Positions 8,486 to 52,352 are shown, numbered from the stretch's first letter. The stretch is 64,000 nucleotides of DNA from a bacterium (GCA_030430495.1 JAUIKM010000009.1:6250-70249), one strand, 5' to 3'. Notes: generated by a model from the letters alone, not told the origin. Translations and numbers: made by a program.

Positions 8486-8487
8486 TC

Positions 8488-9387: not shown

Positions 9388-9389
9388 AT

Positions 9390-11076: not shown

Positions 11077-11081
11077 AACGC

Positions 11082-12185: not shown

Positions 12186-12209
12186 TTAAACACAATCGGC
12201 ACGGACGGC

Positions 12210-17600: not shown

Positions 17601-17726
17601 GGCCGCGGCCGAAAATTCACCGCAGTCCCAGAACGGGACCGACGGCTGCACCGTGAGCATATAGGTGACGAGCGCCAGAGCAAATACCAGGATGCCAAAA
17701 GCGCGATGGAGAGTCTTTGTATCCAT
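14655..17726 (-). CDS. DUF2723 (TMEM260-type) GT-C fold membrane glycosyltransferase-like protein with a C-terminal TPR region. Paralog 1.
   Basis: From the internal ATG at 17726 the N-terminus is MDTKTLHRAFGILVFALALVTYMLTVQPSVPFWDCGEFSAAAIQQQVPHPPGAPLF, the DUF2723 signature. There are about 11 TM helices, then a large soluble region with TPR-like repeats. The track ORF extends 25 codons further upstream. Confidence 0.8.
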   Translation of the reverse strand: MDTKTLHRAFGILVFALALVTYMLTVQPSVPFWDCGEFSAAAIQQQVPHPPGAPLFLMVGKVFHVLLPFGDEGWRINLVSVLSSAFCVLLLYLISVIVINNFRGEKPKDFGEGLMVYGSSFIGAAAFIFSDTFWFNAVESEVYAASTLFVAIIVWLIMRWHEEADNPGNERYLLMIAYLIGLSIGVHLLAVLTIFPIALIIYFRKNEPGLLSFLVMGVAAVAAFGMVYPGIVKWLPAMIDGNWTINAGKLDRIVAGFLVLFTAVFIFWSWRNNRNLLVVVGSCFVLIFVGYSTYTHILLRANAHPPMNENNPNDLSSLVSYLGREQYGDAPMWPRRYDTRPHIQRNFNAYGEWYPPDRERVEREDGVVLAVPVFNQVNAAGEFNYLIDYQASHMYGRYFAWNFIGRVSDIQDAPWTKIGADEDYWLYGVGTFAEHFPARFFALPLLFGLLGLFFQAFRDPRMAIAYFVLFLLTGIIAALQQNQQNPQPRERDYFYTGSFMVFAMWIGLGVYFIAEQLRRQREAGYAPLVAVILILSFVAVPANMAWQGWAIHDRSGNYLPFDYAYNILQSVEENAIVFTNGDNDTFPVWYLQDVAGVRRDVRIVNLSLGNTLWYVDQLKNERPWNAEQIPLSFSDASIQTRDENSPVALTYYIDRERTMEVSVSPDILRQYTDDPAIINSGKMSWQLIGDPYGSGSEPQEYVIRVQDQLVTDILKTTRFERPVYYSMSVGPDAYAGLEDFFRLEGMCLRVCPVSQNNQSGFFACNEAIMDQTLLNIIPGNDYHKQQHYGWKLRNLNNPDVYYDESNRRPVPSYRNIYLNYATWQLNQGNKEKATAVMDTLDKYISSKMFPMPFATEMQIAEIYSRAGAERQAEHFAQMALESSDFLLQPENRQLWNTRERYTYSYNPAQIAADASTMLGNYDAAMDYWQQYGESIGRGDDPSLQGIIDQLRIEKYESEGKYSEAIAEAEKVIESYRNSGHQYLNALIPQIEFQIMDLKRKAGFPVSDSLPEGGADAASGGANQ

Positions 17727-17839
17727 ACGGTTGCCGATGTCCGATTGAAATTGTTGGCCGTCGGAGAAATGCGCTGCGCGCGTCCGGCCTGTGACACACA
17801 AATCCGTAATTTACCGCTTTGAGCGCAGACTGCAAGGTC

Positions 17840-19039
17840 TTATTTGCGGCTTTCGTCTGCGGCGAGCGTCCATTCCGCTCCGGCGGCGTCTTCCAGCCGC
17901 GTGATCACCTCGGCTGAAATTGCATCACAGACCATATAACCGGCTGCCGTCAGACTGATAACGCCCCCGTCAAAGCGCGCCAGTCCACGATCCTGCAGCT
18001 GCCCGGCATAGTCGCCCAGCGCCGCAACGACGTCGATATCAAATTCGCGCTGAAAATCGGCCGGTACTATTCCGGTGGAGCGCAGGCCGAGAAAAGCGCG
18101 TTCAAACATGCGGTCGCTGCGCGAAAGGCGTTCGGAGTTCGCCAGCGGCAGCACGCCCTCGTTCATCATATCCATATAGCGTTTGAGGTTGCGCACGTTC
18201 CAGTAGCGCGTTTCGTCCAGGTAGCCGTGCGCGGAGGGACCGACGGCAAAGTATTCTTCTCCGTTCCAGTATTTCAGGTTGTGGCGGCAGCGCAGGCCGT
18301 CGCGCGCAAAATTGGATACTTCGTACTGTTCATAACCGCCGTCCGCCAGGATCTGCATAACGTCGTCGTACATTGCGGCGTCCAGGTCTTCATCGGCTTC
18401 CCGCACTTCACCGCGCAGGCGCATGGCGTTGAGCGGCGTACCTTCTTCAAAGATGAGGCTGTAGGCGGAGATGTGTTCGGGGCCCAGTTCCAGCGCGTGC
18501 TTCATGTTTGCCTGCCAGCGCTCGCGCTTCTGGCGCGGCAGCGCAAACATCAGGTCCAGGTTAACATTGTCAAAGCCGGCCGCTCTGGCGGTGGTCAGCG
18601 CGTCAAATGCTTCGGTTCGCGAATGAATGCGCGAGAGGAATTTCAGATCGTCTTCGTAAAAGGACTGCACGCCGAAGCTTAATCTGTTGACGCCGTGTTC
18701 GCGGTAGCCGCTCAGACTCTCAACTGTTACCGTCCCGGGATTGCACTCCATTGTCAACTCGACATCCGGAGTCAACACAAGGTGTTCGCGTACGTTGTTT
18801 AATATGTTTCCGATCTGTTCGGGCCGCAGCAGCGAGGGCGTTCCCCCGCCAAAAAATACGGTATCGACCGTCCGCTGACCTTCCGGCAGTTTGTTTAAGC
18901 GCAGATCGATCTCACGCAGCAGCGCGTTAACAAATGCATCGATCATCGAGGTATTTTCGATGGAATAGAAGTCGCAATAGATGCACTTTTTATCGCAGAA
19001 CGGAATATGCAGATAGAGTCCGCGTTGCACGCCATTTCC
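17840..19039 (-). CDS. hemW: Radical SAM HemW/HemN-like protein (heme chaperone / oxygen-independent coproporphyrinogen oxidase family).
   Basis: LYLHIPFCDKKCIYCDF is the CxxxCxxC radical-SAM cluster motif, and GGGTPSLL is present. The track ORF (to 19297) adds an S/Q/R/K-rich, non-protein-like 86-aa extension with no internal Met. The likely start is the GTG at 19039 (VQRGLYLHIPFC), preceded by AGGGAAA. Confidence 0.75.
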   Translation of the reverse strand, partial: GNGVQRGLYLHIPFCDKKCIYCDFYSIENTSMIDAFVNALLREIDLRLNKLPEGQRTVDTVFFGGGTPSLLRPEQIGNILNNVREHLVLTPDVELTMECNPGTVTVESLSGYREHGVNRLSFGVQSFYEDDLKFLSRIHSRTEAFDALTTARAAGFDNVNLDLMFALPRQKRERWQANMKHALELGPEHISAYSLIFEEGTPLNAMRLRGEVREADEDLDAAMYDDVMQILADGGYEQYEVSNFARDGLRCRHNLKYWNGEEYFAVGPSAHGYLDETRYWNVRNLKRYMDMMNEGVLPLANSERLSRSDRMFERAFLGLRSTGIVPADFQREFDIDVVAALGDYAGQLQDRGLARFDGGVISLTAAGYMVCDAISAEVITRLEDAAGAEWTLAADESRK

Positions 19040-19683
19040 CTGTTTAATAACACGCCGGATTTTTCTCCGGCGACTTACACGGATGTTCCTGAGGGACTGA
19101 CACGGTTGAGCGCTGTAAAACGTGTAGCGGCTTTGTGGTTGGCGGGATTGAGGCCTGTCAGAAAGCGCTGTGCGCTTTTGGTTCTCCTGCCTGATTGACG
19201 CTGAACGACTTGAGGCTTGAGCGCTTCGCCCCTTCGTTCCACTCTGTGGCTTGCTTTTTTCTTTTTGTTTGCCGGCGGGTGTCGAACTTGGAGACATCGG
19301 GACCGCAAAAGGGTACGCCGGCCGTTGGTCGATTTTTTTCGATCAGATCAAATTTTTGTTTCGCTCGCTCTTATCGGCGAATTCAGCCTGCAAGGCGGAC
19401 ATCTCCGGCACGCGTAATGTAGATTTTTCACCTCGGCCATGTTTTCGGTTTGTTTCATTTGGCAAACGTTCGCTATGTTCCCACAAATTTCAAAGACATC
19501 TAAAAGAATCGCGCAGCACATCCACTCCCCAACACTCTGCATTTATGTATCCGATTCTTACTGGTCTCTGAATAACAGAAATCCGCAAAAACCACTGCCG
19601 TGAACCGCAAGGTTCAAACCCACTCGGTTGCGGAGAGTACATACGCCTTATGGATGGTGCACTGTTCAGTCCCGGCGTAAAGA

Positions 19684-19783: not shown

Positions 19784-20722
19784 ATGATGAAACAAATCTA
19801 TCAACGCTCATTGATAACGAGCACGCTTTTGACGACCGTTATGATTCTGCTGTTCTCAAGTTTAACCGCCAACGCACAATGCCTGCCGGACTGCCGGCAA
19901 TCGCCGTGGGGACCGCCGCAGACGAGAAATATCATCTTGTTTCATGAGTGTTTTGGCTGTGCTATAGAAGTGACTTTTGTCACAAGACGTGCTTGCGGAG
20001 CATTCGATGACATGCAGATAACTGAAGTAGAATTGGTTTCCGGCTGTGGTGGATGTACGCTGCAAGAAGTATTCGAAGCGGCATTTGAAGCACTGATTAT
20101 GGATGAACCTCGAATTTTTGAAGACCCTGATAATGGAGAGTGTGCAAATAACTGGCGTATTTCTTCAGCCGGCTGCTTTAACGAATGGTTCGTGACATTT
20201 CCGGAAGGAGGATCCGGTACATTCCTCGTGCCCTGCGACGGTGAAACCTGTTGTTTGACCCCGCTTCGGGTTTGTCGCGACAACAATGGAAATATTGAGT
20301 CAATCACACCTCTTGGTGGCCCCTTTGGCGGTGGTGATTGCGCCCAGTCTACTCCTGTATTTGGCGAGGGCCCCTGTTTTACGACCTGCGAATTTGACGG
20401 ATTTACTCTGGGCAAAGGTTCTCTACCTGGTGGCCGAGTTACCAACGATCCGGCACATGCCATTGAGCATGCGATTGCCATGCCCAATCCGGCAACCGGC
20501 ACCACGGTTGAATTCGAACTCGACGTAAACGCAGCCGGCCAGGCACATTTGGCGATTTATGACATGCAGGGGCGCATCGTCAAAGAAACATCTGTGAGCC
20601 TTGCCAATGGCAAAGCGCGCGTCGCCGTCGACGTCGCCGATTTGACACCGGGCTCCTACGTTTATGAACTGACGGTGGCCGGGCGCAAACTCGTCAACGA
20701 CAAACTTGTGATCAGCAAATAA
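19784..20722 (+). CDS. Secreted cysteine-rich protein with a Por/T9SS C-terminal sorting domain.
   Basis: N-terminal signal peptide MMKQIYQRSLITSTLLTTVMILLFSSLTANA. More than 25 Cys in about 200 aa. The C-terminal roughly 80 aa (NPATGTTVEFELDVNAAGQAHLAIYDMQGRIVKE...GSYVYELTVAGRKLVNDKLVISK) match the T9SS CTD pattern. Confidence 0.7.
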   Translation: MMKQIYQRSLITSTLLTTVMILLFSSLTANAQCLPDCRQSPWGPPQTRNIILFHECFGCAIEVTFVTRRACGAFDDMQITEVELVSGCGGCTLQEVFEAAFEALIMDEPRIFEDPDNGECANNWRISSAGCFNEWFVTFPEGGSGTFLVPCDGETCCLTPLRVCRDNNGNIESITPLGGPFGGGDCAQSTPVFGEGPCFTTCEFDGFTLGKGSLPGGRVTNDPAHAIEHAIAMPNPATGTTVEFELDVNAAGQAHLAIYDMQGRIVKETSVSLANGKARVAVDVADLTPGSYVYELTVAGRKLVNDKLVISK

Positions 20723-20760: not shown

Positions 20761-22236
20761 ATGCAACGCAATTCAGCCGATTACGGTTGTTGGCTGCAAG
20801 AAGTAGGAGGGATCGCATCACCGGTCCCTCCTACCTTTATTGATACTTTCAATCGGACTTCAATGAAGCCCGCACGGACGACAGACAAAATCATGCACAA
20901 TTTCAAATCGCCCCTTCGCCTCAACATCGGGAAATTTTTCGCTTGTTTCTTTATCAACAGTATGTTCGTAGTAGTCTGCGCCATTGCGCAGCCACACTAC
21001 TGGGAGACTGTCGATCATATCCCAAGCCTTGATTACGAGGACATTGATTGTGCCGACAGCAATTCAATAATGGCGGTTGGCAACTGGGCCAACGGAGCGA
21101 GGCCGACAATCCGTAGAACGACGGATGGCGGCAAGACCTGGACCTCAGTAATTGAGAATGAAGTCGAGCGCGATGAAAATGGGAATGCAATCAGTTTTCC
21201 AATTCGTTTTATTGCGATTTCCCATCCTTCACCAGATATTGCCATCGTCGCTGCGGACAGTGGATTGATTTTGAGAACCTATGATCAAGGAAGTACCTGG
21301 GACACTCTGAATTTTGGCTTTGATGAGAGATTTCGCGACGTCGCGGTGACGCCCGCCGGCTCCGGAATTGCCACGACTATCAATGACCGGATATTTCTTA
21401 CAAATGATAGTGGAAAAACCTGGGAAGAAATCGAGTCGCCCGGAATAGCTTCTCAACGTGACATTGCATTTTACGACGGCATTGACGTTGTCCTGAAAGT
21501 ATTCACTGGTCCTGAAAACGGTGTTGGAGTCCGAACTAAAAAACTGGGAGAAAAGCAATGGAACGCCTTTGTAGCTCCAAACGAGCCTGGTGAAATGTTT
21601 TTCGCCACACCCGAAATTGGTTGGCTGGTTGGTTTTGAAACGACCGAAGGCAGTATTGGGAACGACCTCATTTACTCCACCACAGACGGAGGTAAAAACT
21701 GGACAACATTGCTTCGTGAACAAATAGAACAACCCTATGGATTGTACAGCATTGCCTTCGCCGACGAAAATCACGGTATAGCAGGCGGCTACTACGGTAA
21801 AATTCTTCGCACCAGTGACGGCGGTAAAAACTGGATTGTGGATACATCCGATATCAGAGAGTCCATTTTCCATGTGGTCATGAAGGTTTCATACCCCTAC
21901 ATAGATCTGGCTTATGCTGTCAGCCAAAACGGCCACATCGTGCGTTACAAACCGACGACCACATCGGTGGACGACGACACTCCGCGACGTCAAAACGAAC
22001 CCGTCACGCTCTACCCCAATCCGGCCACGCAGACAATCAATATCAAACTGCCGAAGCACTGTTTAAACTCGACAGTTGAACTCTTTGACGCCGCAGGCAG
22101 AAAGCTGCGGACACGGAACGCGCGGTCCGCCCGACAGATTGCTCTCGACGTCAATGGTCTGGAAGCGGGACTTCACATTGTCAGGCTCTCCGGCTGCGGC
22201 GAGTCATATACGCAGACGGTGATGATTGCCCGTTAA
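20761..22236 (+). CDS. Secreted BNR/Asp-box (Ycf48-like) beta-propeller repeat protein with a T9SS C-terminal sorting domain.
   Basis: Repeated S/T-x-D-x-G-x-T/N-W motifs: TTDGGKTWTSV, TYDQGSTWDTL, TNDSGKTWEEI, STTDGGKNWTTL, RTSDGGKNWIV. The C-terminus YPNPATQTINIKL...VELFDAAGRKL...GLHIVRL has the T9SS CTD pattern. The likely start is an internal Met (MKPAR, or MHNF at 20893) before the hydrophobic signal segment. Confidence 0.7.
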   Translation: MQRNSADYGCWLQEVGGIASPVPPTFIDTFNRTSMKPARTTDKIMHNFKSPLRLNIGKFFACFFINSMFVVVCAIAQPHYWETVDHIPSLDYEDIDCADSNSIMAVGNWANGARPTIRRTTDGGKTWTSVIENEVERDENGNAISFPIRFIAISHPSPDIAIVAADSGLILRTYDQGSTWDTLNFGFDERFRDVAVTPAGSGIATTINDRIFLTNDSGKTWEEIESPGIASQRDIAFYDGIDVVLKVFTGPENGVGVRTKKLGEKQWNAFVAPNEPGEMFFATPEIGWLVGFETTEGSIGNDLIYSTTDGGKNWTTLLREQIEQPYGLYSIAFADENHGIAGGYYGKILRTSDGGKNWIVDTSDIRESIFHVVMKVSYPYIDLAYAVSQNGHIVRYKPTTTSVDDDTPRRQNEPVTLYPNPATQTINIKLPKHCLNSTVELFDAAGRKLRTRNARSARQIALDVNGLEAGLHIVRLSGCGESYTQTVMIAR

Positions 22237-22421: not shown

Positions 22422-25400
22422 TCAGGCGTCGGGAAGTGACAAACCAGCCGCCGAGTCTCCCGGCGCCCCGGCTTTGAACTGGAGCTGCCGCATATGCTGC
22501 TCCAACTGCGGAATAATGCCGTTCAGGTATGCCGAACCCGAAGCGCGGTACTCAGTGATAATCTTCTGAATTTCCGCGATGGCCGCTACCACATCGCCCT
22601 CCGCCGTGTGGCGCTCGATGCGCAGCTGATCGATGACCGCTCGCAGGCCGGGGTCGTCGGCCCGGCCGATTGAAGCGCCGTAATCGCGCCAGTACTGCAT
22701 CGCTTCGTCGTAGCGACCGAGTATGGTCACCGCCTCGGCGGCAATCTGCATCGGGTTGTACGAATACGTGTACAGTTCGCGCGTGCCCCACAGATCCCGG
22801 TTGTTTAACAGATGTTCCGAGGACTTCAGTGCCATCTCCGCGAATTCGCGCGCACGCTCCGTTGCTCCCGCGCGCAGGTACATGTCGGCTGTTTGCAGCT
22901 CGACGGCAAAAGGCATCGGGAACATCTCCGTAGAAATGTAGTCGTTCATTGTGTTGAGCACCTGCTGCGCCTTGTCGTTTTTGCCGCGAGCAATCAACCA
23001 GTTGGCGTAGTTCATGTAGATATTGCGATAGCTCGGAATCGGACGACGGTTGGACTCATCGTAGTAAACATCCGGGTTGTTTAAGTTGCGCAGCTTCCAG
23101 CCGGGATGCGGTTCGGTGAAGAACTCATCACCCTCAACGATATTCATGATTGTCCGGTCCATCATCTCTTCACTACAGGCGTACAGATCGCCGCGATTGT
23201 GCTGCGGTACCGGACAAACGCGCATAGCCATGCCCTCCATCCTGAAGTGATCCTGCAAACCTGCGTAGGCGTCTGGACCGACAGACAGGGAGAAGTACAC
23301 GGGCCGCTCAAATCGAATAACTTCGATTATTTCGCGGATCAACTGATCCTGAACACGGAACACGTACTCGCCTTCACCGTGATTAAACTCCTCACCCTCA
23401 AAGAGCCAGCTCATCTTCGGCGTCTGCAACAAGGCCGGGTCGTCCGTGTATTGCGCCATGATTTCGCGGCGCACCGGCACTTCAACCTGACGGGCCTTGT
23501 CGATGTAGTACGACAGCGCCTCGCGGGCGTTGGGATCGTCAACCTGGATTGACTCATCGCTGAAACGCAGTGGAATGGCCGCAGCGCCCCACGGTTCGCT
23601 GTTTTTCAGTTGATTGACGTACCAGGGGGTATTGCCGAGGCTCAGGTTAACAATGCGTACGTCGCGACGCACGCCGGCAACGTCCTGCATGTACCAGACC
23701 GGAAATGTGTCGTTGTCGCCGTTGGTAAACACAATCGCATTTTCGTCAACGCTCTGCAGGATATTGTAGGCGTAGTCAAAGGGCATGTAGTTGCCGCTGC
23801 GATCGTGCACTTTCCACCCCTGGATGGCCATGCTCGCCGGCGCGGCGACAAAACTCACCAGCAGGACGCAGGCCACAATCGGCAGGGCCATGCGTTTATT
23901 GATGCTGCGTGCGCGTTCCGCCAGATAATAAACGCCGATTCCGATCCACATGGCAAAGATCATGAATGAACCGGTGTAAAAGTAATCGCGCTCGCGCGGC
24001 TGCGGATTCTGTTGGTTCTGCTGCAAGGCAACGATTATCCCCGCCAGAATAAACAGAATGAAAAATGACGCGGCGGCTTTTGGATCGCGCCGTGCATGAT
24101 AAAACAAACCGAGCAGGCCCAACAGAAAAGGCAAAGCAAAAAAGTTAATCGGAAAATAGTCCGCGAACAGTCCGACGCGATAATTCCAATAGTCCACATC
24201 TGCGCCCGGATGCACCCAGGGAGAATCCTGTATGTCGCCGACGCGCCCGATAAAATTCCAGGCAAAATAGCGCCAGTACATGTGGTCGGCCTGGTAGCTG
24301 AGCAGGTAGTTCAACTCCGCCCGGGTATTGATGTCGCTGTTCTCGTAGTCGACCACGCTCAACGCCATACCGTCGCGACGAACAACGCGTTTGCGCGCCG
24401 GCGGCTGCCATTCGCCATAGGCGTCAAAGTTGCGCTGAATCTGCTTGCGCGTATCGTGGCGACGCGGCCAGAAAGGAGCCTGGGGATATTGTTCGCGCCC
24501 CAGATAGTCCGCCAGGCCGCTGAGGTCGCCGGGATTGTTTTCATTCATCGGCGGATTGGCATTTGCGCGCAGCAGAATGTGACCGTACGTGCTGTAGCCG
24601 AGAACCGTCAGAATAAAACAGGCGCTGACGAGCGTCAACAGCCCCGACCGGCGACGGTATGCCCAGATAAACAGCACCAACGCAGCGCTTAATATTGAAT
24701 ATGCCAGGAGCCGCAACAGGGAGCTGTCCACCGCCATCCACTCGTTCGCTTCCGTCTTGAACGGCGCGTGACCGTCCATCATGCCCGGCAGCCACTTGAC
24801 CATACCGGGATAAATCACAAAAAAGACGGCTACAGCTATTGCGCCCATTGTGATAAATGTTAACGGTTTGAATTCGTACTTGCGGAAGTACACGATCATC
24901 GCAATCGGAAATATCGTCAGCAGAGCCAACAGGTGAACGCCGATCGACAATCCAAGCAGATAGGCAATGAGGAGCAAATAGCGCTCGTGCCCCGCCTCGT
25001 CGGCAGCTTGATGCCAGCGTAAAATCAGCCAGACAGTCAGCGCGACGAACAAAGTCGAAGCGGCATAAACCTCCGATTCCACTGCGTTGAACCAAAAAGT
25101 ATCGCTGAATGTCAACGAACATGCGCCGACAAACCCCGCGCCGTACACCGAGAGCGCCTCCGTGAATTCGCGCGGCCGGCCGCCGCGGAAATTGTCAATC
25201 ACCAGGACAATTATCAGGTACAACAGCAGCGCTATCACCGCACTTGCACAGACGGAAACGAGATTAACACGCCAGGCCGACTCGCCGAAGGGGATCAGCA
25301 AATCAAATGTTTTACCGACCATCAGAAAAAGCGGCGCGCCCGGCGGATGCGGCACCTGCTGCTGTACGGCCGCCGCGGTAAATTCCCCGCAATCCCAGAA

Positions 25401-25493
25401 CGGAACAGTATCCTGTACCGTCAGCAGGTAGGTGCAGAACGCCAGGATAAAGGTCAGAAATGCAAAAGATCGATGCAGTAATTTTACGTTCAT
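22422..25493 (-). CDS. DUF2723 (TMEM260-type) GT-C membrane glycosyltransferase-like protein with a C-terminal TPR region. Paralog 2.
   Basis: N-terminus MNVKLLHRSFAFLTFILAFCTYLLTVQDTVPFWDCGEFTAAAVQQQVPHPPGAPLF. Collinear with the 14655..17726 paralog along the whole length, with the same TM block and the same soluble repeats. Confidence 0.8.
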   Translation of the reverse strand: MNVKLLHRSFAFLTFILAFCTYLLTVQDTVPFWDCGEFTAAAVQQQVPHPPGAPLFLMVGKTFDLLIPFGESAWRVNLVSVCASAVIALLLYLIIVLVIDNFRGGRPREFTEALSVYGAGFVGACSLTFSDTFWFNAVESEVYAASTLFVALTVWLILRWHQAADEAGHERYLLLIAYLLGLSIGVHLLALLTIFPIAMIVYFRKYEFKPLTFITMGAIAVAVFFVIYPGMVKWLPGMMDGHAPFKTEANEWMAVDSSLLRLLAYSILSAALVLFIWAYRRRSGLLTLVSACFILTVLGYSTYGHILLRANANPPMNENNPGDLSGLADYLGREQYPQAPFWPRRHDTRKQIQRNFDAYGEWQPPARKRVVRRDGMALSVVDYENSDINTRAELNYLLSYQADHMYWRYFAWNFIGRVGDIQDSPWVHPGADVDYWNYRVGLFADYFPINFFALPFLLGLLGLFYHARRDPKAAASFFILFILAGIIVALQQNQQNPQPRERDYFYTGSFMIFAMWIGIGVYYLAERARSINKRMALPIVACVLLVSFVAAPASMAIQGWKVHDRSGNYMPFDYAYNILQSVDENAIVFTNGDNDTFPVWYMQDVAGVRRDVRIVNLSLGNTPWYVNQLKNSEPWGAAAIPLRFSDESIQVDDPNAREALSYYIDKARQVEVPVRREIMAQYTDDPALLQTPKMSWLFEGEEFNHGEGEYVFRVQDQLIREIIEVIRFERPVYFSLSVGPDAYAGLQDHFRMEGMAMRVCPVPQHNRGDLYACSEEMMDRTIMNIVEGDEFFTEPHPGWKLRNLNNPDVYYDESNRRPIPSYRNIYMNYANWLIARGKNDKAQQVLNTMNDYISTEMFPMPFAVELQTADMYLRAGATERAREFAEMALKSSEHLLNNRDLWGTRELYTYSYNPMQIAAEAVTILGRYDEAMQYWRDYGASIGRADDPGLRAVIDQLRIERHTAEGDVVAAIAEIQKIITEYRASGSAYLNGIIPQLEQHMRQLQFKAGAPGDSAAGLSLPDA

Positions 25494-25753
25494 GGTCTTC
25501 CGTCCGGAATTCGCAGCCGCAGTTTGTTAAAGACAAACAATGGCGGCGACGGCAATGAAATGCAGGGGCGTACGCCTCCGCTTCACCGTCGAATGTGAAG
25601 TGTCAATCTGTGTTTAAGTACGGATAGAGGGGCGGCTCGCTACGACCGCACCGAAGTGAATACCGGGACAGCGTCGTGGTTAACGCTTAAACAAACCCGA
25701 CCCGCGCCTGCACGGCTCCGGGTTTTCGTTTAACGACTTTTTCTGAGCAGAGA

Positions 25754-26659
25754 TTACTCGACAATGGTTCCGATTCGGCCAAAATCAATTTCGCCCCGGT
25801 CGTCGCGCGACCAATACACCAGGACGGCCTTGCCGAGAATTCTGTCGCATGCCACGCATCCCCAATAGCGCGAATCGTAGCTGTTGTCGCGATTATCGCC
25901 TACAACAAAGACGTAGTCGTGCTCGAATGTATAGCTGTCGCAGTATTCGCCGTTGATGTACACCTTAGCTTCGCTGAGGTTCACGCGATTACCGGCGGAA
26001 ATGATTAATTCTTTCCATGCTTCGATATTCCTATCGTCTATCTTGATCGTCAGCCCGCGGTAAGGCACGATCAATCGTTCGCGTGGCGCACCCTCCGGCA
26101 CGGCCAGATGCATGCGCTGTGCGCGCATGAGGAATGCACCGCCGAGCTTCGGCAGGTCGAGCTGTTGATTTGTCGTCAGATTCGTCAGGCGGCGACCGTC
26201 AAAGTGGACCGAATCGCCGGGCAGCCCCCAGGCGCGTTTGACGTAGCGCTCCAGCGGCGCGTCCCTGAGCCCATAAGCCGGAAAGTCAAAAACGATGACG
26301 TCGTCGTGCTCGACGTCAAAAGTTGAAAATCGCCAGTCGAGCGGGTTGTCCGCGTCGGTGAAAGGTATCGTGCGCGGCAGCCCCGCCGAATACGCCAGTT
26401 TGTTGACGACAACAAAATCGCCGATGTGCAGCGTCGGCTGCATCGAGCCGCTCGGAACCGAGAAAATGTCGAGCACAAAAATCTTTAACATCAGGCCCAC
26501 CGCCAGCGCCCAGATCAGCGCCTCGACGATGTCGCGAAGCCCGATGGAATCGGACTTGGGCCCGGGAGCCTTGTCGGAATCCGACGCCGGGCCGCTCTCA
26601 TCTTTCCGCTCCGACGGATCGGGCGCTTCGGCGCCGTTATGTTGGCTGGATTCGCTCAT
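25754..26659 (-). CDS. lepB: Signal peptidase I (S26 family), paralog 1 of 3.
   Basis: Catalytic Ser box PSGSMQPTL, Lys box KRAWGLPGD, and box E VVGDNRDNSYDSRYWG. N-terminal acidic, low-complexity extension followed by a TM segment. Confidence 0.85.
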   Translation of the reverse strand: MSESSQHNGAEAPDPSERKDESGPASDSDKAPGPKSDSIGLRDIVEALIWALAVGLMLKIFVLDIFSVPSGSMQPTLHIGDFVVVNKLAYSAGLPRTIPFTDADNPLDWRFSTFDVEHDDVIVFDFPAYGLRDAPLERYVKRAWGLPGDSVHFDGRRLTNLTTNQQLDLPKLGGAFLMRAQRMHLAVPEGAPRERLIVPYRGLTIKIDDRNIEAWKELIISAGNRVNLSEAKVYINGEYCDSYTFEHDYVFVVGDNRDNSYDSRYWGCVACDRILGKAVLVYWSRDDRGEIDFGRIGTIVE

Positions 26660-26686
26660 GAACTCGCTGATTATTCTGCTGCCGGT

Positions 26687-27598
26687 CTATTCCACGGAAG
26701 TCATAAAGCGATCCGACCGCGTCTGCCCCGTTACCGGATCGACCGAGTAGTAGACGAGGAAAGGACTGCCCACGACGTCGTCAAGCGCCACAAATCCCCA
26801 GTAGCGGCTGTCGAGACTGTTGTCGCGGTTGTCGCCCATCATGAAAAGATAGTCGCGCTCGACAGTGTAGTTCATCACTGGGCGGCCGTCGATCACCCAA
26901 TTTTCGTTGAGAAAATCGATATTGACGGCGTGCCCCTCACGCGCGATGAACACCTGCCATCTGTTGATGGTCTCTTCACTCAGGTCGAGCGTCACGACGT
27001 CGCCTGCGGCCGGGACGCGCAGCGGACCGTATTCGGTGGCCGACCATTCGCTGCCCTTGGGGAAAATCCTTCCCGCACCGGCCGGCATCCACGGATTGTC
27101 TTCGCGGTAGGCGTGTTCCGGCAGCGCGTCTTTGAGGCCGTTGATGTACAAATCGTTATGGCGCATCTCCACCGTGTCTCCGGCAATAGCCACACAGCGC
27201 TTCAGGTAGTAGTTGAATTGTCCCGCCTCGATCTGATCGCGATCGCCGGGATATTCAAATACCACCAGGTCGCCGCGGTCGGGTTCATCCCAGGAAGGCA
27301 GAAGCGGGATCCAGGGCGCTTCCACGCCGAGAACGGGAATGGTGCGTGGCGTGGTCAGCCGGTAACGCGCTTTGTTGACGAGTACGTAGTCGCCCGCAAG
27401 CACGGTGCCTTCCATCGAGCCCGTTGGGAGGAAAAAAGTGGACACGGAGCAGAAGTAGAGAAAACCCAAAATACACGACGCGGCTATCAGACCATAGATT
27501 CCGCGCGATCGCCTGGGCGTTTTATCCGAAGCCTTGTCAATTCGGGCCATACAAGCGATTCTCGTTGCGTGGTCGCCGGAACACCGGCCGTTGATCAC
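26687..27598 (-). CDS. lepB: Signal peptidase I (S26 family), paralog 2 of 3.
   Basis: PTGSMEGTVLAGDYVLVNK, KRCVAIAGD, MMGDNRDNSLDSRYWG. An alternative start at the Met at 27550 is possible. Confidence 0.85.
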   Translation of the reverse strand: MINGRCSGDHATRIACMARIDKASDKTPRRSRGIYGLIAASCILGFLYFCSVSTFFLPTGSMEGTVLAGDYVLVNKARYRLTTPRTIPVLGVEAPWIPLLPSWDEPDRGDLVVFEYPGDRDQIEAGQFNYYLKRCVAIAGDTVEMRHNDLYINGLKDALPEHAYREDNPWMPAGAGRIFPKGSEWSATEYGPLRVPAAGDVVTLDLSEETINRWQVFIAREGHAVNIDFLNENWVIDGRPVMNYTVERDYLFMMGDNRDNSLDSRYWGFVALDDVVGSPFLVYYSVDPVTGQTRSDRFMTSVE

Positions 27599-27666
27599 CG
27601 CATGTTCGGCGCGCGCCCACCTGAATCAGACCGGCGCGCTCAGCATTTCACCTTGTGATTTTTAAC

Positions 27667-28584
27667 TCAGTCGATGCCGGTAAAAATCCGGTCCAGTCGC
27701 AGGCGCGACCACTTTTCTGCCAGAGGATATTCCTGATTGCTGTTCTTCGGGCCTACTTCCCAGGACCAATACACAAACATCGGTGTGCCGACGATATTGT
27801 CAACCGGAACAAAACCCCAGAAGCGGCTGTCGAGGCTGTCATCGCGATTGTCGCCCATGCCGAAAACGTAGTCGCGCTCAACTGTATACGTCTGCGCCTC
27901 CACCCCGTCGATGCGCCACGTCCCCGTCGCCTGGTCGTAATCCACGTCGTGACCCTCGCGCTGAATAAAGATATTCCAGCGATTGAACGTGTCGGGATCG
28001 GCATCCAGCGTCACCACATCGCCTTCCTTCGGCACCGTAATCGGGCCGTAATTCGACGGCGACCAGCTGGTTCCACGCGGAAACAGGCTGCCAGGGCGGT
28101 AGTGTTTGTCCCCGCTGAAATTCGCCAGCTCGGGGTTTTCCTGCAGACTGCCGTTCACGTACAACTTGTTTTCGCGCACTTCCACTTCATCGCCGCCGAC
28201 AGCTACGCAGCGTTTGAGATAGTAGGTGAATTCTTTGGATTCAACCATGTCGCGATCGCCCGGAAAGATAAACACAATCACGTCGTTGCGCTCCGGAGCC
28301 CAGATCGGCGCCGTCTTCCAGAACGGCAGGGGCTCGTTCAGAAAAGGAACGATCTGCGGCGTGGAAGGACCGTACACAAATTTGTTTACAAAGACAAAAT
28401 CACCGGCGAGCACCGTGCCCTCCATGGAGCCGGTCGGTACGACGAAGGACGCTACCAGCGCGCCGTTGACGAACATGACGATGATGATGGCGCCGATGAT
28501 TGTTTTAATCCAGGAGGTCAGGCCGGCCACAAAACCGACTTTTTCATTTGAAGGTCGTTTGCCCTCCGACTTTGGTCTCGCCAC
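27667..28584 (-). CDS. lepB: Signal peptidase I (S26 family), paralog 3 of 3.
   Basis: PTGSMEGTVLAGDFVFVNK, KRCVAVGGD, GMGDNRDDSLDSRFWG. Located immediately downstream of lepA, the canonical lepA-lepB arrangement. Confidence 0.85.
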   Translation of the reverse strand: MARPKSEGKRPSNEKVGFVAGLTSWIKTIIGAIIIVMFVNGALVASFVVPTGSMEGTVLAGDFVFVNKFVYGPSTPQIVPFLNEPLPFWKTAPIWAPERNDVIVFIFPGDRDMVESKEFTYYLKRCVAVGGDEVEVRENKLYVNGSLQENPELANFSGDKHYRPGSLFPRGTSWSPSNYGPITVPKEGDVVTLDADPDTFNRWNIFIQREGHDVDYDQATGTWRIDGVEAQTYTVERDYVFGMGDNRDDSLDSRFWGFVPVDNIVGTPMFVYWSWEVGPKNSNQEYPLAEKWSRLRLDRIFTGID

Positions 28585-28758
28585 GGTTTTACCCTGTATT
28601 GTATCGTGATAGAAAGGTCTGCAAGTGAGTTTTCAGCCCCGCATTTCAGGCGACGCAACGCCGCGCTCCGCGAGCCACAGTGATGCAGCTACGCGCCCGG
28701 TCGGCAAATGTTTCCACCGCCGGAATATCCGCGGCCGTAAACGGCAAAAGTCGGCAGT

Positions 28759-30561
28759 TTAATCGTTGATGCGCAGGACGGCCAGGAATGCTTCCTGCGG
28801 CACCTCCACGCTGCCGATCTGTTTCATCTTGCGTTTGCCGGCTTTCTGTTTTTCGAGCAGCTTGCGCTTGCGCGAAATATCACCGCCGTAGCACTTGGCC
28901 AGCACGTTCTTGCGCATGGCGCGGATGGTGTCGCGTGCAACAATGCGCGTTCCGATAGCCGCCTGGATGGCAACTTCAAACATCTGGCGCGGAATCAATT
29001 CTTTCAGCTTGGCGCACAGTTTTTTGCCCCATTCGTGCGCCTTGGAACGGTGAATGATGCACGACAGAGCGTCCACCGGGTCGCCGTTGAGCAGGATGTC
29101 GAGCTTGACCAGTTCGCTGGGACGCTCTTCCAGGATCTCGTAGTCGAGCGAGGCATAACCGCGCGTCGAGGATTTGAGCCGATCAAAAAAGTCGAAAATC
29201 ACCTCGGCCAGCGGCAGGTCGAAGTTCATTTCCACGCGGTCTTCGCTCAGGTAATTTGTACTCACCGGCGCGCCGCGGCGCTCCAGGCACAGTTTCATCA
29301 CCGCGCCGATGTACTCCGACGGACAGATGATCTGCGCGCGGATGATCGGCTCTTCAATGCGGTTGATCACGCCCGGCGAGGGCAGGTCGACCGGGTTGTC
29401 GACTTTCAGCACTTCGCCGTTGGTGCGGTAGACCGTATATGCCACGTTGGGCACCGTCGTCACAATTGTCATCTTGAACTCGCGTTCCAGACGCTCCTGC
29501 ACGATCTCCATGTGCAGCAGTCCAAGGAAGCCGCAGCGGAAACCGAAGCCGAGCGCCGAACTGGACTCGGGCTCAAAGGTAATCGCCGAGTCGTTCATCG
29601 CCAGTTTGGACAGCGCCTCGCGCAGATTCTCAAAGTCCTCGCTGTCCTGCGGGTAAATCCCGCTGAAGACCATCGGCTTGACTTCCTTGAATCCCGCTAT
29701 CGCATTCTCGACGCCGTTCTTAACCGTTGTGATCGTGTCGCCGACCTTGGTATCGTGCAGGTTTTTGATGGCGGCGGTCATGTAGCCGACCTCGCCCGCA
29801 CGCAGTTCACTCTGCGGCACGCGCCCCATGCGCATGATGCCGACTTCTTCCACTTCGTATTGCGGCTGTGTGGCAAAAAAACGGATTTTCTGGCCTTTTT
29901 TTATCACGCCGTCTATCACGCGAATGTTAACAACCACGCCGCGGTAGGGATCAAACACGGAATCGTAAATCAGCGCCCGCAGCGGCGCTTCGGGGTCGCC
30001 CGTCGGCGGCGGAACCTTTTCAACAATCGCTTCAAGGATGTCTTCCGTGCCGATGCCCTCTTTGGCCGATGCCAGGATCATGTCCTCATCTTCGCAACCG
30101 ATTAACTCGCGCACCTGTTTCTGCACGTTTTCCAGCGTGGTCGCCGCACTCGGCAAGTCAATTTTGTTAACAACCGGAATGATCTCCAGTCCGGCGTCAA
30201 TCGCCAGATAGAGATTGGAAATTGTCTGCGCTTCCACGCCCTGGGTTGCGTCTACAATTAACAACGCACCTTCGCAGGCCGCCAGCGAACGCGACACCTC
30301 GTAGGAAAAGTCCACGTGCCCCGGCGTGTCGATCAGGTTCAGGACGTACTCTTCCCCGTCTTTGGCTTTGTAGCGCATCTGAATGGCATGCAGTTTGATC
30401 GTGATGCCGCGCTCCTGCTCCAACGGATTGTCGTCCAGGACCTGCTTGGTTTTAAACGCTTTGGCGTTCAGCGTTTTGGTAAATTCGAGCAGCCGATCCG
30501 CCAGCGTCGATTTGCCGTGGTCGATATGCGCGATAATGCAGAAATTGCGAATCTTCTTCAT
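28759..30561 (-). CDS. lepA: Translation elongation factor 4 (LepA).
   Basis: [25 protein letters not shown] is the G1 motif. DTPGHVDF and NKIDL are present. The protein is LepA-like along its whole length. The internal Met at 30561 matches the canonical LepA N-terminus. The track ORF adds 12 codons. Confidence 0.9.
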
Positions 30562-30638: not shown

Positions 30639-33134
30639 TTAAAGTGCGCGGTCCAGGAATTTAACAAACGCGGCTTCGTCCGTTGTGTAGGCGGACTTGG
30701 ATATCAACTGCTCCTGCGGTGTTAAAATCACGTAGAGCGGCAGGCTGATGTCGCCGTAGCGTTCCTCCTGCATCTTCTTGTACCGGTTGCTGTCATCCGA
30801 GCGCAGATCCGTATACAGTTGCACCACAACCATCTGTTCCAGACGGGTTTTAACACTCTCCTTCGGGAACATGGTCTTTTCCATCAGGCGGCAGTTTGTA
30901 CAGGTTTTGCCGGTAAAATCCACAAAGAGCGGTTTACCCGTTTTCTGCGATTCGGCCAGCGCCGCTTCGTAGTCCAGGAATATCTGCTCGCCTGCGTGTT
31001 TTTGCTTGAGCCTTTCCAGGAAATCACTACTGTTTTCCCCGGCTGCGGCTTCGCCGGCGCCTGGCTGTGCGAGGTCTGAATTTGTCGAGCTGTTTTCAGT
31101 CGTGACCGAGTTTCCGCCTTCCTCAAAATTGTGGAAGTAGATTTTGTCGTCCGGCGGCAGGAACGAGTCGATCATGCCGAGGTTTTTGCCCATCAATCCC
31201 GTAAACAGGAAAAAGGTGATGCTGGCAAAAAAGAGCGCAAACATCGCGCGCGTAGCGCCGACGCTGTCAACCGGACTGTCGTGCGAAAACCGGAAAATAC
31301 CCAGGATGTAAATCACGATGAAAATCGCGCAGCCGATCCACGTCGCAAGAAACAGATCGCGCGATAAAATTTGCCAGTTCCACACCAGGTCGGCATTGGA
31401 TATGAACTTCACCGCCGCCGCAATCTCGATGAATCCCATCACCACTTTGATGTTGTTCATCCAGCCGCCGGCGCGCGGCAGCTTCTGCATCATAGCCGGA
31501 AACAACGCCAGCAAAAAGAATGGCAATGCAAAAACCGTCGCGAATGCCGTCATCCCCAGAACCGGCCGCAGCAGCTCCGTTTCAGCGCCGCCGGTAGAAA
31601 TGAAAGCGGTCCCCACAAAGGGCACCGTACAGGTAAACGAGGTCAGCGAAAAGGTCAAAGCCATCAACAGAATGCCCGTGAAACCCTTGCCGTCGCCGCT
31701 GGCCGTATTCAGTTTGTTAAGTATCGCCGCCGGTATCTGAATCTCAAATGCGCCGAAGAGATTAAACGCAAAAATGATAAAGACCGAGGCAATCGCGATG
31801 TTCACCCAGGGATTCGTCGAGAAGTCGCGAACGCCCGTCGCGCCGAACAACAGCGTCAAAAGGACGCCCAGCACAACAAAGGTCAGGATAATGCCGAAGG
31901 AATAGACCAGGCTGTCGATCACGCCGCGGCCCGGATTTTTCTCGGAGCGTTTGGTGAAAAACGACACGGTGATCGGAATCATCGGGAACACACAGGGCGT
32001 CAGCAGAGCGCCGGCGCCGGCGACCATCGCCAGGATGAGGTACATCCACGTCGTCGCCTTGATCGTGGCCGTGATGTACATTTTGTGCTGCGTCGGCGGC
32101 AGACAGGCGCCTTCCTTGCAGATCTGATAGTCGATCGAAATGCTGAAGGGCTCCTGTGAATTGTCCTGCTCCAGCTTGACATTGTCCGGCACGTACACCG
32201 GAATCCGGAAGGTCGCTTCTTTTTTGTGTTTGCCGACGTCCATCATCTGGGCTTCGTCGTATTCCACCGTCGGCTGCGACTCCGTCACGTCTCCCATGCG
32301 AATTTTATCGCCGCCCTCCACCTCGAAGGTCGTGGCCTGGGGACCGAGTCCGTATTCGTCAACCGTTGCATTGATGCTGTAGGCATGCCAGCCGTCGGCA
32401 ATTTTCATGGTGACGTCGAGGTACACCGTATCGCCGACGACAATCGCCAGGTTCGTCGTGTCGGCAATCGAGATGTCGACCAGTTTGTCGTAGCTCGCAT
32501 TCGACAGATCGTCGCCGGACGATGCACCGTCCGACTCCATCGACTCGGAGTAATCTTCGCCTTCGTCGGAACTTTCGTCATCACTTGCGGCATCATCCGC
32601 GGCGCTGTCGGTCGTGGATGTGGCCGCACCGCTCACTTTGACCGTCAGCGGCAGTTCTTTCATGTCCGGCGGCAGACAGCGCGTCGGATCGCAGGACTGG
32701 AAGTACACCCTTACTTTGCCGGTGTAATCACCGGGCGCCATTCCGGCCGCCGCTTTGACGTTGACCGTAAAGTTGGCGCTGTGCTCGTGGTATTCAATAT
32801 CAAAATCAAAACCCTTGTCGAATTTCGACTTGGGTTTGGGCTCTTTTACGCCGGCCAGGCTGATGCCGTCGGCAAAACCGTCCAGCTCGACCTCGGTGGC
32901 CGTCGGTCCGATGCCGTATTCATCGCTTTTGGGGTTGACGCCGTAGATGTACCAGGTCTCGTCGATCGTGGCTTTCAGACCTACCGCCGCTTGTGAACCG
33001 GCTTCAACGCTGATGCTGTTGCCGCCGAGCGACCACTGCACCTTGGCGCCGTCTTCGCTGAAAAGCGTACTGTAGCCGACCGCCGCAAGCAGAAGAACGG
33101 TCGCCGTAATCAGGAATTTATCGGCTCTTGTCAT
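30639..33134 (-). CDS. dsbD: Thiol:disulfide interchange protein DsbD-family, with a duplicated nDsbD-like periplasmic domain.
   Basis: TM core with CVFPMIPI (CxxP variant). C-terminal thioredoxin-like domain [10 protein letters not shown] (CxxC). There are two N-terminal domains, each ending in a Cys pair before LPP: CDPTRCLPP and CKEGACLPP. They are separated by a D/S/E-rich acidic linker. Confidence 0.8.
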
Positions 33135-38376: not shown

Positions 38377-39363
38377 TCAGACAGGATCCGCACTTACTTC
38401 CGTCCAGATACCCATTGCGCTGAACTTGTTCAATCGTTGTTCCAACAAGTCAGTGGTGTCGAACTTAAGCAGGCCGCGAAGTTCATCAGTCAAAATACGC
38501 TGCATCGTTGCAAACATTGCGCCGTGGTCGGCATGAGCTCCGCCAATAGGTTCGGGAACGATGCGATCTATTATTCCGAACTTTTGCAGATCCGGCGCCG
38601 TCAGTTTAAGTGCTTCAGCCGCCTGCTCTTTGTATTCCCAGCTGCGCCACAAAATGCTGGAGCAGGACTCGGGCGCAATCACCGAATACCAGGCGTTTTC
38701 CAACATCAGAACCCTGTCCCCGATTCCAATGCCCAGCGCGCCGCCGGAGGCGCCCTCGCCGATAATTGTTATGATAATCGGCACGCTCAACCGCGCCATT
38801 AAACGCAAATTGCGGGCGATTGCCTCTGCCTGTCCGCGTTCCTCGGCTTCCATGCCCGGATACGCGCCCGGAGTGTCAATCAGGCAAACAACAGGTTTGT
38901 TGAATTTTTGCGCCAACTCAAACAGTCGGTGCGCCTTGCGGTATCCCTCGGGATTCGGCATGCCGAAATTGCGCATCAGGTTCGATTTGGTATCGCGCCC
39001 CTTTTGATGCCCCACCACTACGACGCCGCGGCCGTCCAGCCGGGCCAGACCGCCCACAATCGCAGGATCGTCACGGAACGAGCGGTCGCCGTGCAACTCA
39101 ACAAAATCGGTAAAAATGTTTTCGATGTAATCAAGCGTCTGCGGACGCTGCGGGTGGCGCGCTATCTGGACGCGCTGCCAACGGGTAAGTTTGGAATACA
39201 CTTCCTCACGCAGGCGCCTGACTTTGCTTTCGAGTTTGTCTATCTCGAGATTGATCTCCATGGAATCGGCCATCGCCCGCATCTCGTCGACCTTGGCTTC
39301 CAGGTCGATGATCGGTTTTTCAAATTCGAGAATGGGGCTGATATTTTTTTTACCCGACGCCAC
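38377..39363 (-). CDS. accA: Acetyl-CoA carboxylase carboxyltransferase alpha subunit.
   Basis: [41 protein letters not shown]. Full-length AccA. Confidence 0.9.
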
Positions 39364-41329: not shown

Positions 41330-41544
41330 TCTGCGGCAACCTCTCGTTTAACAAAGGCGCTTCTGCGCGGCGCCGCTAATTTACGAACGAAATCTCTCAC
41401 CGCACGCCTGCGGCACGCCTCGCTGCGCTCCATCGTTCCCACCGACCGCCAATTGCGGATCCGCTTAGCCGAAAAATAGCTAGATTGCAATTCTACGTGG
41501 CTGCTTGTGAACCTTGGAATGTTGTTGTCTTCCAGCCCCCGCGC

Positions 41545-43466: not shown

Positions 43467-43588
43467 TGCGGCAGGAATCCCGGTATTTTTTTCACCCTTT
43501 GCAGGCGCGCAAACTTACGTAAATTGCCCCTGACGGCAAATCCTGCACGCCGGGTGCAAGACCCGTGAGCACTCTCCGATAGAGCACT

Positions 43589-44713: not shown

Positions 44714-44757
44714 TTTCCGCGGCAAGCAGATATTCTCACGATTCTTTGCCTCCGAAC

Positions 44758-44795
44758 GCTGCGGCGCAGCGGCGCAGCGGCGCAGCGGCGCAGCG
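44758..44795. repeat. Octanucleotide tandem repeat (GCGCAGCG) x about 4.5 in the 5' region of the downstream membrane glycosyltransferase gene.
   Basis: GCTGCGGCGCAGCGGCGCAGCGGCGCAGCGGCGCAGCGG, read directly, 30-70 bp upstream of the ATG at 44827. Confidence 0.8.
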
Positions 44796-44826
44796 GTTTT
44801 GGCCAGGCATTAAACACGTACTCACT

Positions 44827-46161: not shown

Positions 46162-46171
46162 CATGACCTTC

Positions 46172-52344: not shown

Positions 52345-52352
52345 AAGCCGAG

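Follow-up and report, generated by a model that had tools for sequence, protein, structure and literature searches.

In Escherichia coli, lepA lies directly upstream of a type I signal peptidase (SPase I) gene; there is one lepB in that organism, and its product has two transmembrane (TM) helices. The stretch of DNA analysed here (64,000 nucleotides, hereafter the window) comes from an uncultured bacterium of the Kapabacteria/Ignavibacteria type and differs from this arrangement in that lepA is followed by three SPase I genes, whose products have one TM helix each. How did this array arise, and do the three enzymes share one task or divide it? An earlier reading of the sequence alone (the sequence-only reading) had described three tandem, catalytically intact SPase I genes after lepA, and our analysis confirmed this description, with scores far above the family cut-offs. 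In the following, the three genes are named SpA, SpB and SpC in the order of transcription.

Organization of the lepA-linked array

The four ORFs lie on the same (minus) strand and are transcribed in the order lepA, SpA, SpB, SpC. The lepA gene (28759..30561), coding for translation elongation factor 4, specifies 600 aa from an ATG start (MKKIRNF). Its open frame reaches 30597, beyond the ATG at 30561; within this longer frame the TIGR01393 match begins at residue 14, and LepA relatives align with the 600-aa product from its residue 1 onwards. In the profile search the product scored 974 bits on TIGR01393 (cut-off 534), and it carries the GTP_EFTU (PF00009) and LepA_C (PF06421) domains, as found in members of the LepA/EF4 family. 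SpA (27667..28584, minus strand) encodes 305 aa from a GTG start. SpB (26687..27550, minus strand) encodes 287 aa; its ATG start (MARIDK) is backed by the ortholog in the related assembly L082, while the ORF itself extends to a GTG at 27598. SpC (25754..26659, minus strand) encodes 301 aa.

The spacing is 174 nt between lepA and SpA, 116 nt between SpA and SpB, and 27 nt between SpB and SpC. From the common strand and the spacing, we infer that the four genes form a single operon, the scans for promoters and terminators having been uninformative: over the array, the sigma-70 promoter and terminator consensus matched no more often than in shuffled sequences. A candidate hairpin with a U-rich tail lies 3' of SpC (25684..25735, minus strand; -22.9 kcal/mol). 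It was missed by the consensus terminator scan and is no more stable than shuffled sequence (z = -1.1), so that it is a weak, although possible, candidate for the end of the operon. Long antisense ORFs run across the array on the plus strand (26639-27658, 27655-28551 and 29035-30105), and these were treated as shadow frames because the genes on the other strand match their families strongly. On the 3' side the array is followed by a TMEM260-like glycosyltransferase gene, the corresponding neighbour in the relative L085 being HemN.

The same array was found in the assemblies L002 and L082 and in the Logan contigs L001, L083 and L084. An assembly artefact was rejected, since the copies are just 30-50% identical and the array recurs in independent assemblies.

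Family membership and catalytic residues

All three products matched the SPase I profiles, with PF10502 scores of 138 (SpA), 123 (SpB) and 125 bits (SpC) against a cut-off of 22.9, and TIGR02227 scores of 127, 122 and 114 bits, respectively, against a cut-off of 47. Every motif quoted in the sequence-only reading (GSM, K-R...GD and box E) was present, and no copy lacked catalytic residues. The Ser boxes, PTGSMEGT in SpA and SpB and PSGSMQPT in SpC, align to E. coli PSGSMMPT (Ser90). The wider context is SMEGTVLAGD in SpA and SpB and SMQPTLHIGD in SpC, so the claim that two of the genes share this context and one departs from it holds. The catalytic residues of SpA are Ser53 and the Lys of YYLKR, together with GDNRDDSLDSRFWG; those of SpC are Ser72 and the Lys of RYVKR, together with GDNRDNSYDSRYWG; and those of SpB are likewise intact. 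The general base in box D is Lys145 in E. coli and His in enzymes of the ER/SipW type. The box D sequences of SpA, SpB and SpC (YYLKRCVAVGGD, YYLKRCVAIAGD and RYVKRAWGLPGD) are all of the P-type (Lys), not of the ER/SipW type. Box E, GDNxxxSxDSR(Y/F)WG, is present in all three proteins (seen as GDNRDxSxDSR(Y/F)WG) and, with minor variation only, in all 89 S26 copies of the related loci.

These features identify SpA, SpB and SpC as putative type I signal peptidases of the P-type (MEROPS S26A), and as members of this group they are predicted to cleave after A-x-A-type sites. The presence of Ser and Lys in all three excludes the group of non-catalytic SPase-like proteins (S. aureus SpsA, S. pyogenes SipA). 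S26 proteases of conjugative TraF or Ni-SOD maturation were rejected as well: the best scores on TIGR02771, NF010459 and TIGR02754 were 18-42 bits against cut-offs of 63-156.

Membrane topology, N-terminal tails and fold

Each protein has one N-terminal TM helix: in a 19-aa hydropathy scan a single window (score 2.0-2.5) resembled a TM segment, and this window ends about 5-8 residues ahead of the catalytic Ser. By homology, the orientation would be N-in. In SpA the helix covers approximately residues 29-47 and the N-terminal tail has a net charge of +4. The tail of SpC is 47 aa long and contains 11 acidic and 5 basic residues (net charge -6), so the long acidic extension noted earlier for one paralog does exist. 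However, about 40 aa of it are predicted to be disordered, with a pLDDT below 50 in the AF2 model, and the orthologs P0122, L082 and P0123 do not keep its charge, for which reason a conserved role was rejected.

The enzymes of the window, about 300 aa in length, resemble E. coli LepB (PDB 1B12, 1T7D, 6B88) in their Ser-Lys dyad, their box E and the large domain inserted between boxes D and E; LepB was also the best sequence/fold match of both SpA and SpC. The AF2 model of SpC (pLDDT 77.7, TM helix 41-62) retrieved E. coli LepB in its best 16 PDB matches (probability 1.0, E down to 2.5e-10). The global TM-score was just 0.38-0.50, which implies that the inserted domain is poorly matched and not superposable.

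A doublet of signal peptidase genes in the relatives

The sequence-only reading took a lepA-lepB pair as the baseline from which the array had expanded. This did not hold when we surveyed 46 species-representative lepA loci of the Ignavibacteria/Kapabacteria type. In 39 of them two tandem S26 genes follow lepA; a single gene is present at five loci and three genes at L022, and the remaining locus is truncated. All S26 copies at these loci keep Ser, Lys and box E. In Bacteroidia, no S26 gene adjoins lepA (0 of 33 loci). Judged from this distribution, a pair of lepB1 and lepB2 is the ancestral state of the whole class, and with such a class-wide doublet the step taken in the lineage of the window is from two to three genes, not from one to three.

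The nearest doublet-only relative is L085, a syntenic locus (DsbD-lepA-S26-S26-HemN) whose LepA is 84% identical; DsbD and an ABC exporter lie upstream in both L085 and the window. SpA and SpC are the window's orthologs of the class doublet, and the difference is an extra gene of the copy-1 type, SpB, sitting between them. In many doublet relatives the second copy is short (about 200 aa), whereas SpC and its close relatives have about 300 aa. Whether relatives all carry the same triplet thus receives a divided answer, as two of the genes belong to an old, fixed pair and the third is specific to the lineage.

The relatives also show which copy is old. In a neighbour-joining (NJ) tree of 55 taxa with closer relatives added, SpC fell together with the second copy from L085 and that from L087 (240 of 300 bootstraps), and its relatives form a graded identity series (92, 61, 43 and 39%). 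The sequence-only reading rightly singled out a divergent paralog; its paralog 1 is SpC, which is the last gene in transcription and which the tree places as an ancient second paralog and not as the new copy. The only lineage-specific extra is SpB, found in three closely related assemblies.

Divergence, selection and proposed roles

SpA and SpB are 47-51% identical, and SpC is about 30-34% identical to either. Compared with L002, dN/dS was 0.043 for SpA, 0.092 for SpB and 0.130 for SpC (0.032 for lepA), and the values obtained against L082 were 0.081 and 0.131. All three peptidase genes are under purifying selection (dN/dS 0.04-0.13).

A comparison of the S1/S3 pockets had been suggested earlier, and we carried it out by aligning the proteins onto the E. 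coli pocket positions (taken from PMC2259416). The paralogs (in the order SpA/SpB/SpC) differ at known positions: V/L/V at E. coli Ile86, V/F/S at Gln85, T/T/S at Ser88, V/V/L at Leu95, Y/Y/R at Asp142 and L/L/V at Ile144. The changes are conservative hydrophobic swaps, except for Asp142 to Tyr or Arg. On this basis the three proteins are likely isoenzymes. The housekeeping role would fall to SpA, since its sequence is under the tightest constraint and every relative carries an ortholog of it; SpC and SpB would be accessory enzymes with overlapping but shifted substrate preferences, because the known pocket positions differ.

The alternative is that the same specificity is present three times and the extra copies only add capacity, or a reserve of it, for processing a large secretome. 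The catalytic machinery and architecture are alike in all three proteins, most positions of the pocket show the same residue or a conservative replacement, and according to PMC8724576 the minor SPases of Streptomyces lividans can compensate for a lost major one. Pure redundancy nevertheless seems doubtful to us, although it is the most serious competitor: copies so far apart in sequence are each held by purifying selection, lepB1 and lepB2 have been kept distinct across the whole class, and divergent copies that are kept over long times have usually undergone some subfunctionalization.

Origin of SpB

SpB falls inside the copy-1 clade in 195 of 200 bootstraps of a first NJ tree and in 297 of 300 bootstraps of the 55-taxon tree. 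Its position within this clade is less straightforward. SpA and SpB were sisters in 75 of 200 bootstraps, and this value dropped to 35 of 300 when the closer relatives were added; in the latter tree SpA paired with the first copy of L085 (252 of 300) and SpB took a nearly basal position among the copy-1 proteins. SpA is also 53-62% identical to other copy-1 orthologs, which is above its identity to SpB (47%). The site patterns favour the grouping of SpA and SpB by just 3:1:1. In the database search, SpA matched SpB with 280 bits, a thin margin over the 274 bits of other copy-1 proteins. These observations would fit a SpB that is not a recent local duplicate but an old copy-1 paralog lost nearly everywhere else, or a copy-1-type gene acquired from distant Ignavibacteriota/Kapabacteria that came to lie between lepB1 and lepB2.

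Still, we regard such an origin as unlikely. SpB has diverged about 3.5 times faster than SpA (dN 0.040 versus 0.011), and NJ tends to place a single fast-evolving branch basally. Among 5.8 billion proteins, the only SpB orthologs were P0002 (L002, 93%) and P0001 (L082, 83%); the next match, and thus the best non-orthologous one, was the neighbouring SpA (53%), and there was no donor-like sequence above 53% identity, which speaks against acquisition. Moreover, four residues are common to SpA and SpB and occur in no other copy-1 sequence, one of them being the Gly in SMEG. The version with an ancient duplication would need many independent losses, of which no relics were found: when the stretches separating the two lepB genes of L085, L003, L009 and L015 were searched by tblastn for a remnant of a middle gene, nothing better than E = 0.3 was obtained. 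The gap in L015 holds an unrelated open frame of 659 codons.

Taken as a whole, the explanation that we consider probable is an array of the form lepA-lepB1a-lepB1b-lepB2, in which the narrow lineage of the window added SpB to the ancestral lepB1 and lepB2. Most likely, lepB1 was duplicated locally in tandem, and the new copy, SpB, then diverged roughly three times faster. The products are three Ser-Lys dyad peptidases with one TM anchor each; their catalytic domains would face the periplasm, where the enzymes would act as isoenzymes on Sec preproteins. They would cut the signal peptides of Sec-exported and, if present, Tat-exported preproteins, nearby T9SS cargo included. As to the earlier suggestion that the organism uses both T9SS and Tat, T9SS cargo proteins are encoded nearby; no Tat component and no convincing twin-arginine signal was found in about 30 scanned ORFs and a motif scan.

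Comparison with known systems

The comparison with Gram-positive tandem expansions, already drawn in the sequence-only reading, is apt. As in the window, sipX-sipY-sipZ of Listeria comprises three adjacent paralogous and catalytically competent SPase I genes. The Listeria SPases are short, about 180-190 aa, and of the Gram-positive type. Listeria is a monoderm Firmicute, whereas the window belongs to a diderm of the FCB group with enzymes of about 300 aa encoded after lepA. In Listeria monocytogenes SipZ suffices for normal secretion and the other Sips give specific phenotypes (PMC4010754), and this major-plus-accessory pattern is the model proposed for the trio in the window. The sipW-sipX-sipY-sipZ cluster of S. 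lividans also unites several SPase I genes, with SipY as the major enzyme whose loss is partly compensated by the minor ones, as stated in PMC8724576 with reference to Parro 1999 and Escutia 2006. That cluster has four genes, comes from an actinomycete and is not lepA-linked, and the array of the window is known from sequence.

It is very improbable that any of the three paralogs has a dedicated or regulatory task in place of general signal peptide processing. Such cases exist (PMC8844934, PMC4049620), with precedents in B. subtilis SipW, in a Sip of B. thuringiensis that cuts the anti-sigma factor RsiP and in the non-catalytic proteins S. pyogenes SipA and S. aureus SpsA, and the constraint on SpB and SpC is weaker than that on SpA, but intact Ser, Lys and box E in every copy dispose of a non-catalytic model, all three are of the P-type and not of the SipW type, and no candidate gene for a dedicated substrate is linked to the array.

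Significance of the array

The array is an ordinary paralog expansion, as SPase I genes in tandem have been described before, and the wider importance of a routine expansion of a well-understood enzyme is limited. It does correct the assumption that one SPase I is usual in diderm bacteria: the Ignavibacteria/Kapabacteria class keeps a lepA-linked intact pair, to which one narrow lineage added a third gene. If the client sets are distinct, the pair or trio could help to show how SPase specificity is tuned in T9SS-bearing bacteria. A more far-reaching idea, which we hold to be a long shot, is that the lepB1/lepB2 pair and SpB split the secretome of a T9SS-bearing diderm into client classes; one enzyme might take T9SS/outer-membrane cargo with Gln at +1 and another the periplasmic/Tat clients. 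If this were true, SpB would be a recent neofunctionalization caught early, and the array would offer a natural system for the evolution of SPase I specificity at Ile86, Asp142 and Ile144.

Three intact signal peptidase I genes downstream of lepA

The window carries four head-to-tail ORFs on the minus strand, lepA and the type I signal peptidase (S26) genes SpA, SpB and SpC in transcription order. lepA (28759-30561) encodes 600 aa from the ATG of MKKIRNF, the open frame reaching 30597; SpA (27667-28584) encodes 305 aa from a GTG start, SpB (26687-27550) 287 aa from the ATG of MARIDK, with an open frame that reaches a GTG at 27598, and SpC (25754-26659) 301 aa. The spacers between them measure 174, 116 and 27 nt, and 260 nt separate the array from the next gene. 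LepA scored 974 bits against the EF4 equivalog TIGR01393 (cut-off 534), and SpA, SpB and SpC scored 138, 123 and 125 bits against Pfam Peptidase_S26 (cut-off 22.9) and 127, 122 and 114 bits against TIGR02227 (signal peptidase I; cut-off 47); their matches to the conjugative TraF and Ni-SOD protease profiles were far under the cut-offs. No other S26 gene was found within the 64-kb window. In an alignment of the three proteins with one another and with E. coli LepB crystal-structure sequences, P(T/S)GSM supplies the nucleophile Ser of each protein and (Y/R)Y(L/V)KR...GD its general-base Lys, while box E reads GDNRDxSxDSR(Y/F)WG. Because the general base is Lys, these are P-type enzymes. Thus, the ORFs, family scores and motifs bear out the sequence-only reading of lepA followed by three tandem, catalytically intact paralogs.

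Each protein has a single strongly hydrophobic 19-residue window, which stops a few residues short of the catalytic Ser. SpA and SpB have N-terminal tails with a net charge of +4. The long acidic tail noticed earlier in SpC is present (11 acidic and 5 basic residues in 47 aa), but its charge is not kept in the orthologs P0122, L082 and P0123, and the tail is predicted to be disordered (pLDDT <50 across most of residues 1-25; mean 49 for 21-30); therefore, we assign no specific role to it. The distinct Ser-box context of SpC is also real, but SMQPTL is the form closer to E. coli and the more generic of the two, and it is SMEGTV that is specific to SpA and SpB. In the AlphaFold2 model of SpC (pLDDT 77.7, pTM 0.73) a helix at 41-62 precedes a beta-rich domain, and the best 16 matches in the PDB were all E. 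coli LepB (probability 1.0). The global TM-scores were just 0.38-0.50, which implies that the SpC insert of about 100 aa, situated between box D and box E, cannot be superposed on domain II of the E. coli enzyme.

The lepA-linked doublet is the class baseline

Among species-representative genomes, relatives of the window LepA came from Ignavibacteria, Melioribacter and Candidatus Kapaibacterium MAGs (66-78% identity), followed by Bacteroidia (62-64%). We searched 8 kb on each side of lepA with an HMM built from SpA, SpB and SpC in 46 species-representative Ignavibacteria/Kapabacteria-type loci, L002, the window's near-identical lineage, being set aside. Two tandem S26 genes lay directly 3' of lepA in 39 of the 46 loci, a single copy in five (L012, L017, L018, L004 and L045) and three genes in L022 only; one locus was truncated. 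An S26 gene adjoined lepA in 0 of 33 Bacteroidia loci. Ser, Lys and box E were retained by every S26 copy in every locus scanned. With 39 loci already carrying the doublet, the class baseline is lepA-lepB1-lepB2, and not the lepA-lepB pair previously taken as the canonical starting state.

L012, L017 and L018 form a cluster in the copy-1 tree, suggesting one loss or relocation of lepB2 in their clade. The array of L022, a Candidatus Kapaibacterium MAG, comprises three genes after lepA (9804-12231). Its middle copy, carrying SMDTTV and FIG in place of FWG, is very divergent, being only 37% identical to SpB, 39% to the first L022 copy and 37-39% to any other copy, and looks like an independent expansion. 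In addition, LepA and lepB synteny place the MAGs L002, L009, L013, L018, L021 and L039 with Kapabacteria/Ignavibacteria; the titles of their records (Hyphomicrobiales, Patescibacteria, Chitinophagaceae or Chitinophagales) are probably taxonomic mislabels.

SpB is the lineage-specific copy

In neighbour-joining (NJ) trees the first copies and SpB formed one clade (195/200 and 297/300 bootstraps), SpA paired with the first copy of L085 (252/300), and SpC grouped with copy 2 of L085 and of L087 (240/300). L085 (GCA_028284775.1), whose LepA is 84% identical to that of the window, has the S26 doublet only and shares synteny with the window, its order being ABC exporter, DsbD, lepA, S26, S26, HemN. 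The relatives of SpC show graded identities (92, 61, 43, 39 and 38%), as would be expected from vertical descent. Among 5.8 billion proteins SpB had only two orthologs, in L002 (93%) and L082 (83%), and its next best match was SpA (53%). No relic of a middle gene was found in the copy 1-copy 2 gaps of L085, L003, L009 and L015. The observation behind the sequence-only reading is thus confirmed and its interpretation holds in part: the expansion started from a doublet, and SpB alone is the lineage-specific extra copy.

The most economical reading, which we consider probable, is that SpB is a local tandem duplicate of lepB1. The duplication would have followed the split of the L085 lineage and preceded that of L082, and SpB would have evolved faster afterwards (dN 0.040 vs 0.011 for SpA). 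The NJ trees do not confirm this source: SpA and SpB were sisters in 75/200 bootstraps, and in 35/300 with L085 added, and the long SpB branch joined the copy-1 clade close to its base. These placements speak for an older or transferred origin of SpB, which we nevertheless regard as rather unlikely, given that three sites group SpA with SpB and one supports each alternative grouping, a weak lean toward duplication, and that four residues, including the Gly of SMEG, are unique to SpA and SpB among copy-1 sequences.

Selection and proposed function

The same array occurs in L002 (LepA 98% identical) and in the more distant L082. Against L002, dN/dS was 0.032 for lepA, 0.043 for SpA, 0.092 for SpB and 0.130 for SpC; against L082 it was 0.081 for SpA and 0.131 for SpB. 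All three peptidase genes are under purifying selection, SpA being constrained like lepA and SpB and SpC two to three times more weakly.

The three proteins are membrane-anchored Ser-Lys peptidases and should act on the outer side of the inner membrane, cutting signal peptides off exported preproteins. The strongest candidate for a housekeeping role is SpA, since it has an ortholog in every relative, directly follows lepA and shows the lowest dN/dS. By alignment, we placed the paralogs on the E. coli S1 and S3 subsite residues given in PMC2259416, with the following residues in SpA, SpB and SpC, respectively: Phe84 (F, F, F), Gln85 (V, F, S), Ile86 (V, L, V), Ser88 (T, T, S), Leu95 (V, V, L), Ile101 (V, V, V), Val132 (V, V, V), Asp142 (Y, Y, R), Tyr143 (Y, Y, Y) and Ile144 (L, L, V). 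Relative to SpA, five of these subsite positions are changed in SpC and two in SpB. The pockets stay hydrophobic and A-x-A-compatible, and some shift of substrate preference among the paralogs is plausible.

Neighbouring genes and possible clients

Two genes that lie a few kilobases downstream from the array, 19784-20722 (+) and 20761-22236 (+), specify products bearing a T9SS C-terminal sorting domain (Por_Secre_tail), the second also with BNR/Sortilin-type repeats, in line with the T9SS use proposed earlier. Such proteins could be clients at hand for the signal peptidases. The first has a classic signal peptide ending ...SSLTANA/QC, and its Gln at +1 agrees with the 'Q-rule' described for Bacteroidetes and with the high Q-value, 77%, that is reported for Ignavibacterium album (PMC5837995).

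HemN directly follows lepB2 in L085, whereas in the window SpC is separated from HemN (17840-19297) by one TMEM260-like gene and the two T9SS-cargo genes; this interval therefore looks like an insertion or rearrangement. Two paralogous TMEM260-like/DUF2723 putative protein O-mannosyltransferases (PF11028, about 205-209 bits each) are encoded at 14655-17801 (-) and 22422-25493 (-), with 1048 and 1023 aa. Directly upstream of lepA, as in L085, is a DsbD-type thiol:disulfide transporter (30639-33134, -) with two DsbD_N-like stretches and a long acidic Ser/Asp-rich linker at about residues 170-215. An efflux/ABC-2 exporter cluster (7064-13334, +) contains an outer-membrane efflux protein (OEP), an HlyD-family adaptor, an ABC ATPase and two ABC-2 permeases. 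A large envelope-polysaccharide cluster (39350-56226) holds several GT2 and GT4 glycosyltransferases, two Bac_transf/CoA_binding_3 priming transferases, a PMT_2-like protein and a Wzy_C O-antigen ligase-like protein, with PlsY and an ABC permease interspersed. The products of 50728-52344 (+), 57138-58775 (-) and 9384-10472 (-), 362-545 aa long, had no Pfam match at E <= 1e-4; the last of them overlaps an ORF on the plus strand and may not be a real gene.

Relation to known systems

Listeria monocytogenes has, like the window, three neighbouring signal peptidase I genes, sipX, sipY and sipZ (PMC4010754), and Streptomyces lividans has four clustered ones as against three here, according to PMC8724576, citing Parro 1999. 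Tandem clusters in which a major enzyme is accompanied by several accessory ones are thus documented. Our literature search turned up no paper that combines signal peptidase with Melioribacter or Kapabacteria, and among the hits listed none dealt with signal peptidase I paralogs in the Ignavibacteria/Kapabacteria group. In this array, a well-understood enzyme has undergone an ordinary expansion of paralogs. The Listeria review (PMC4010754) gives one type I signal peptidase as the common state of Gram-negative bacteria; a pair throughout the class and a trio in one lineage, among diderm bacteria of the FCB group, therefore represent a modest addition.
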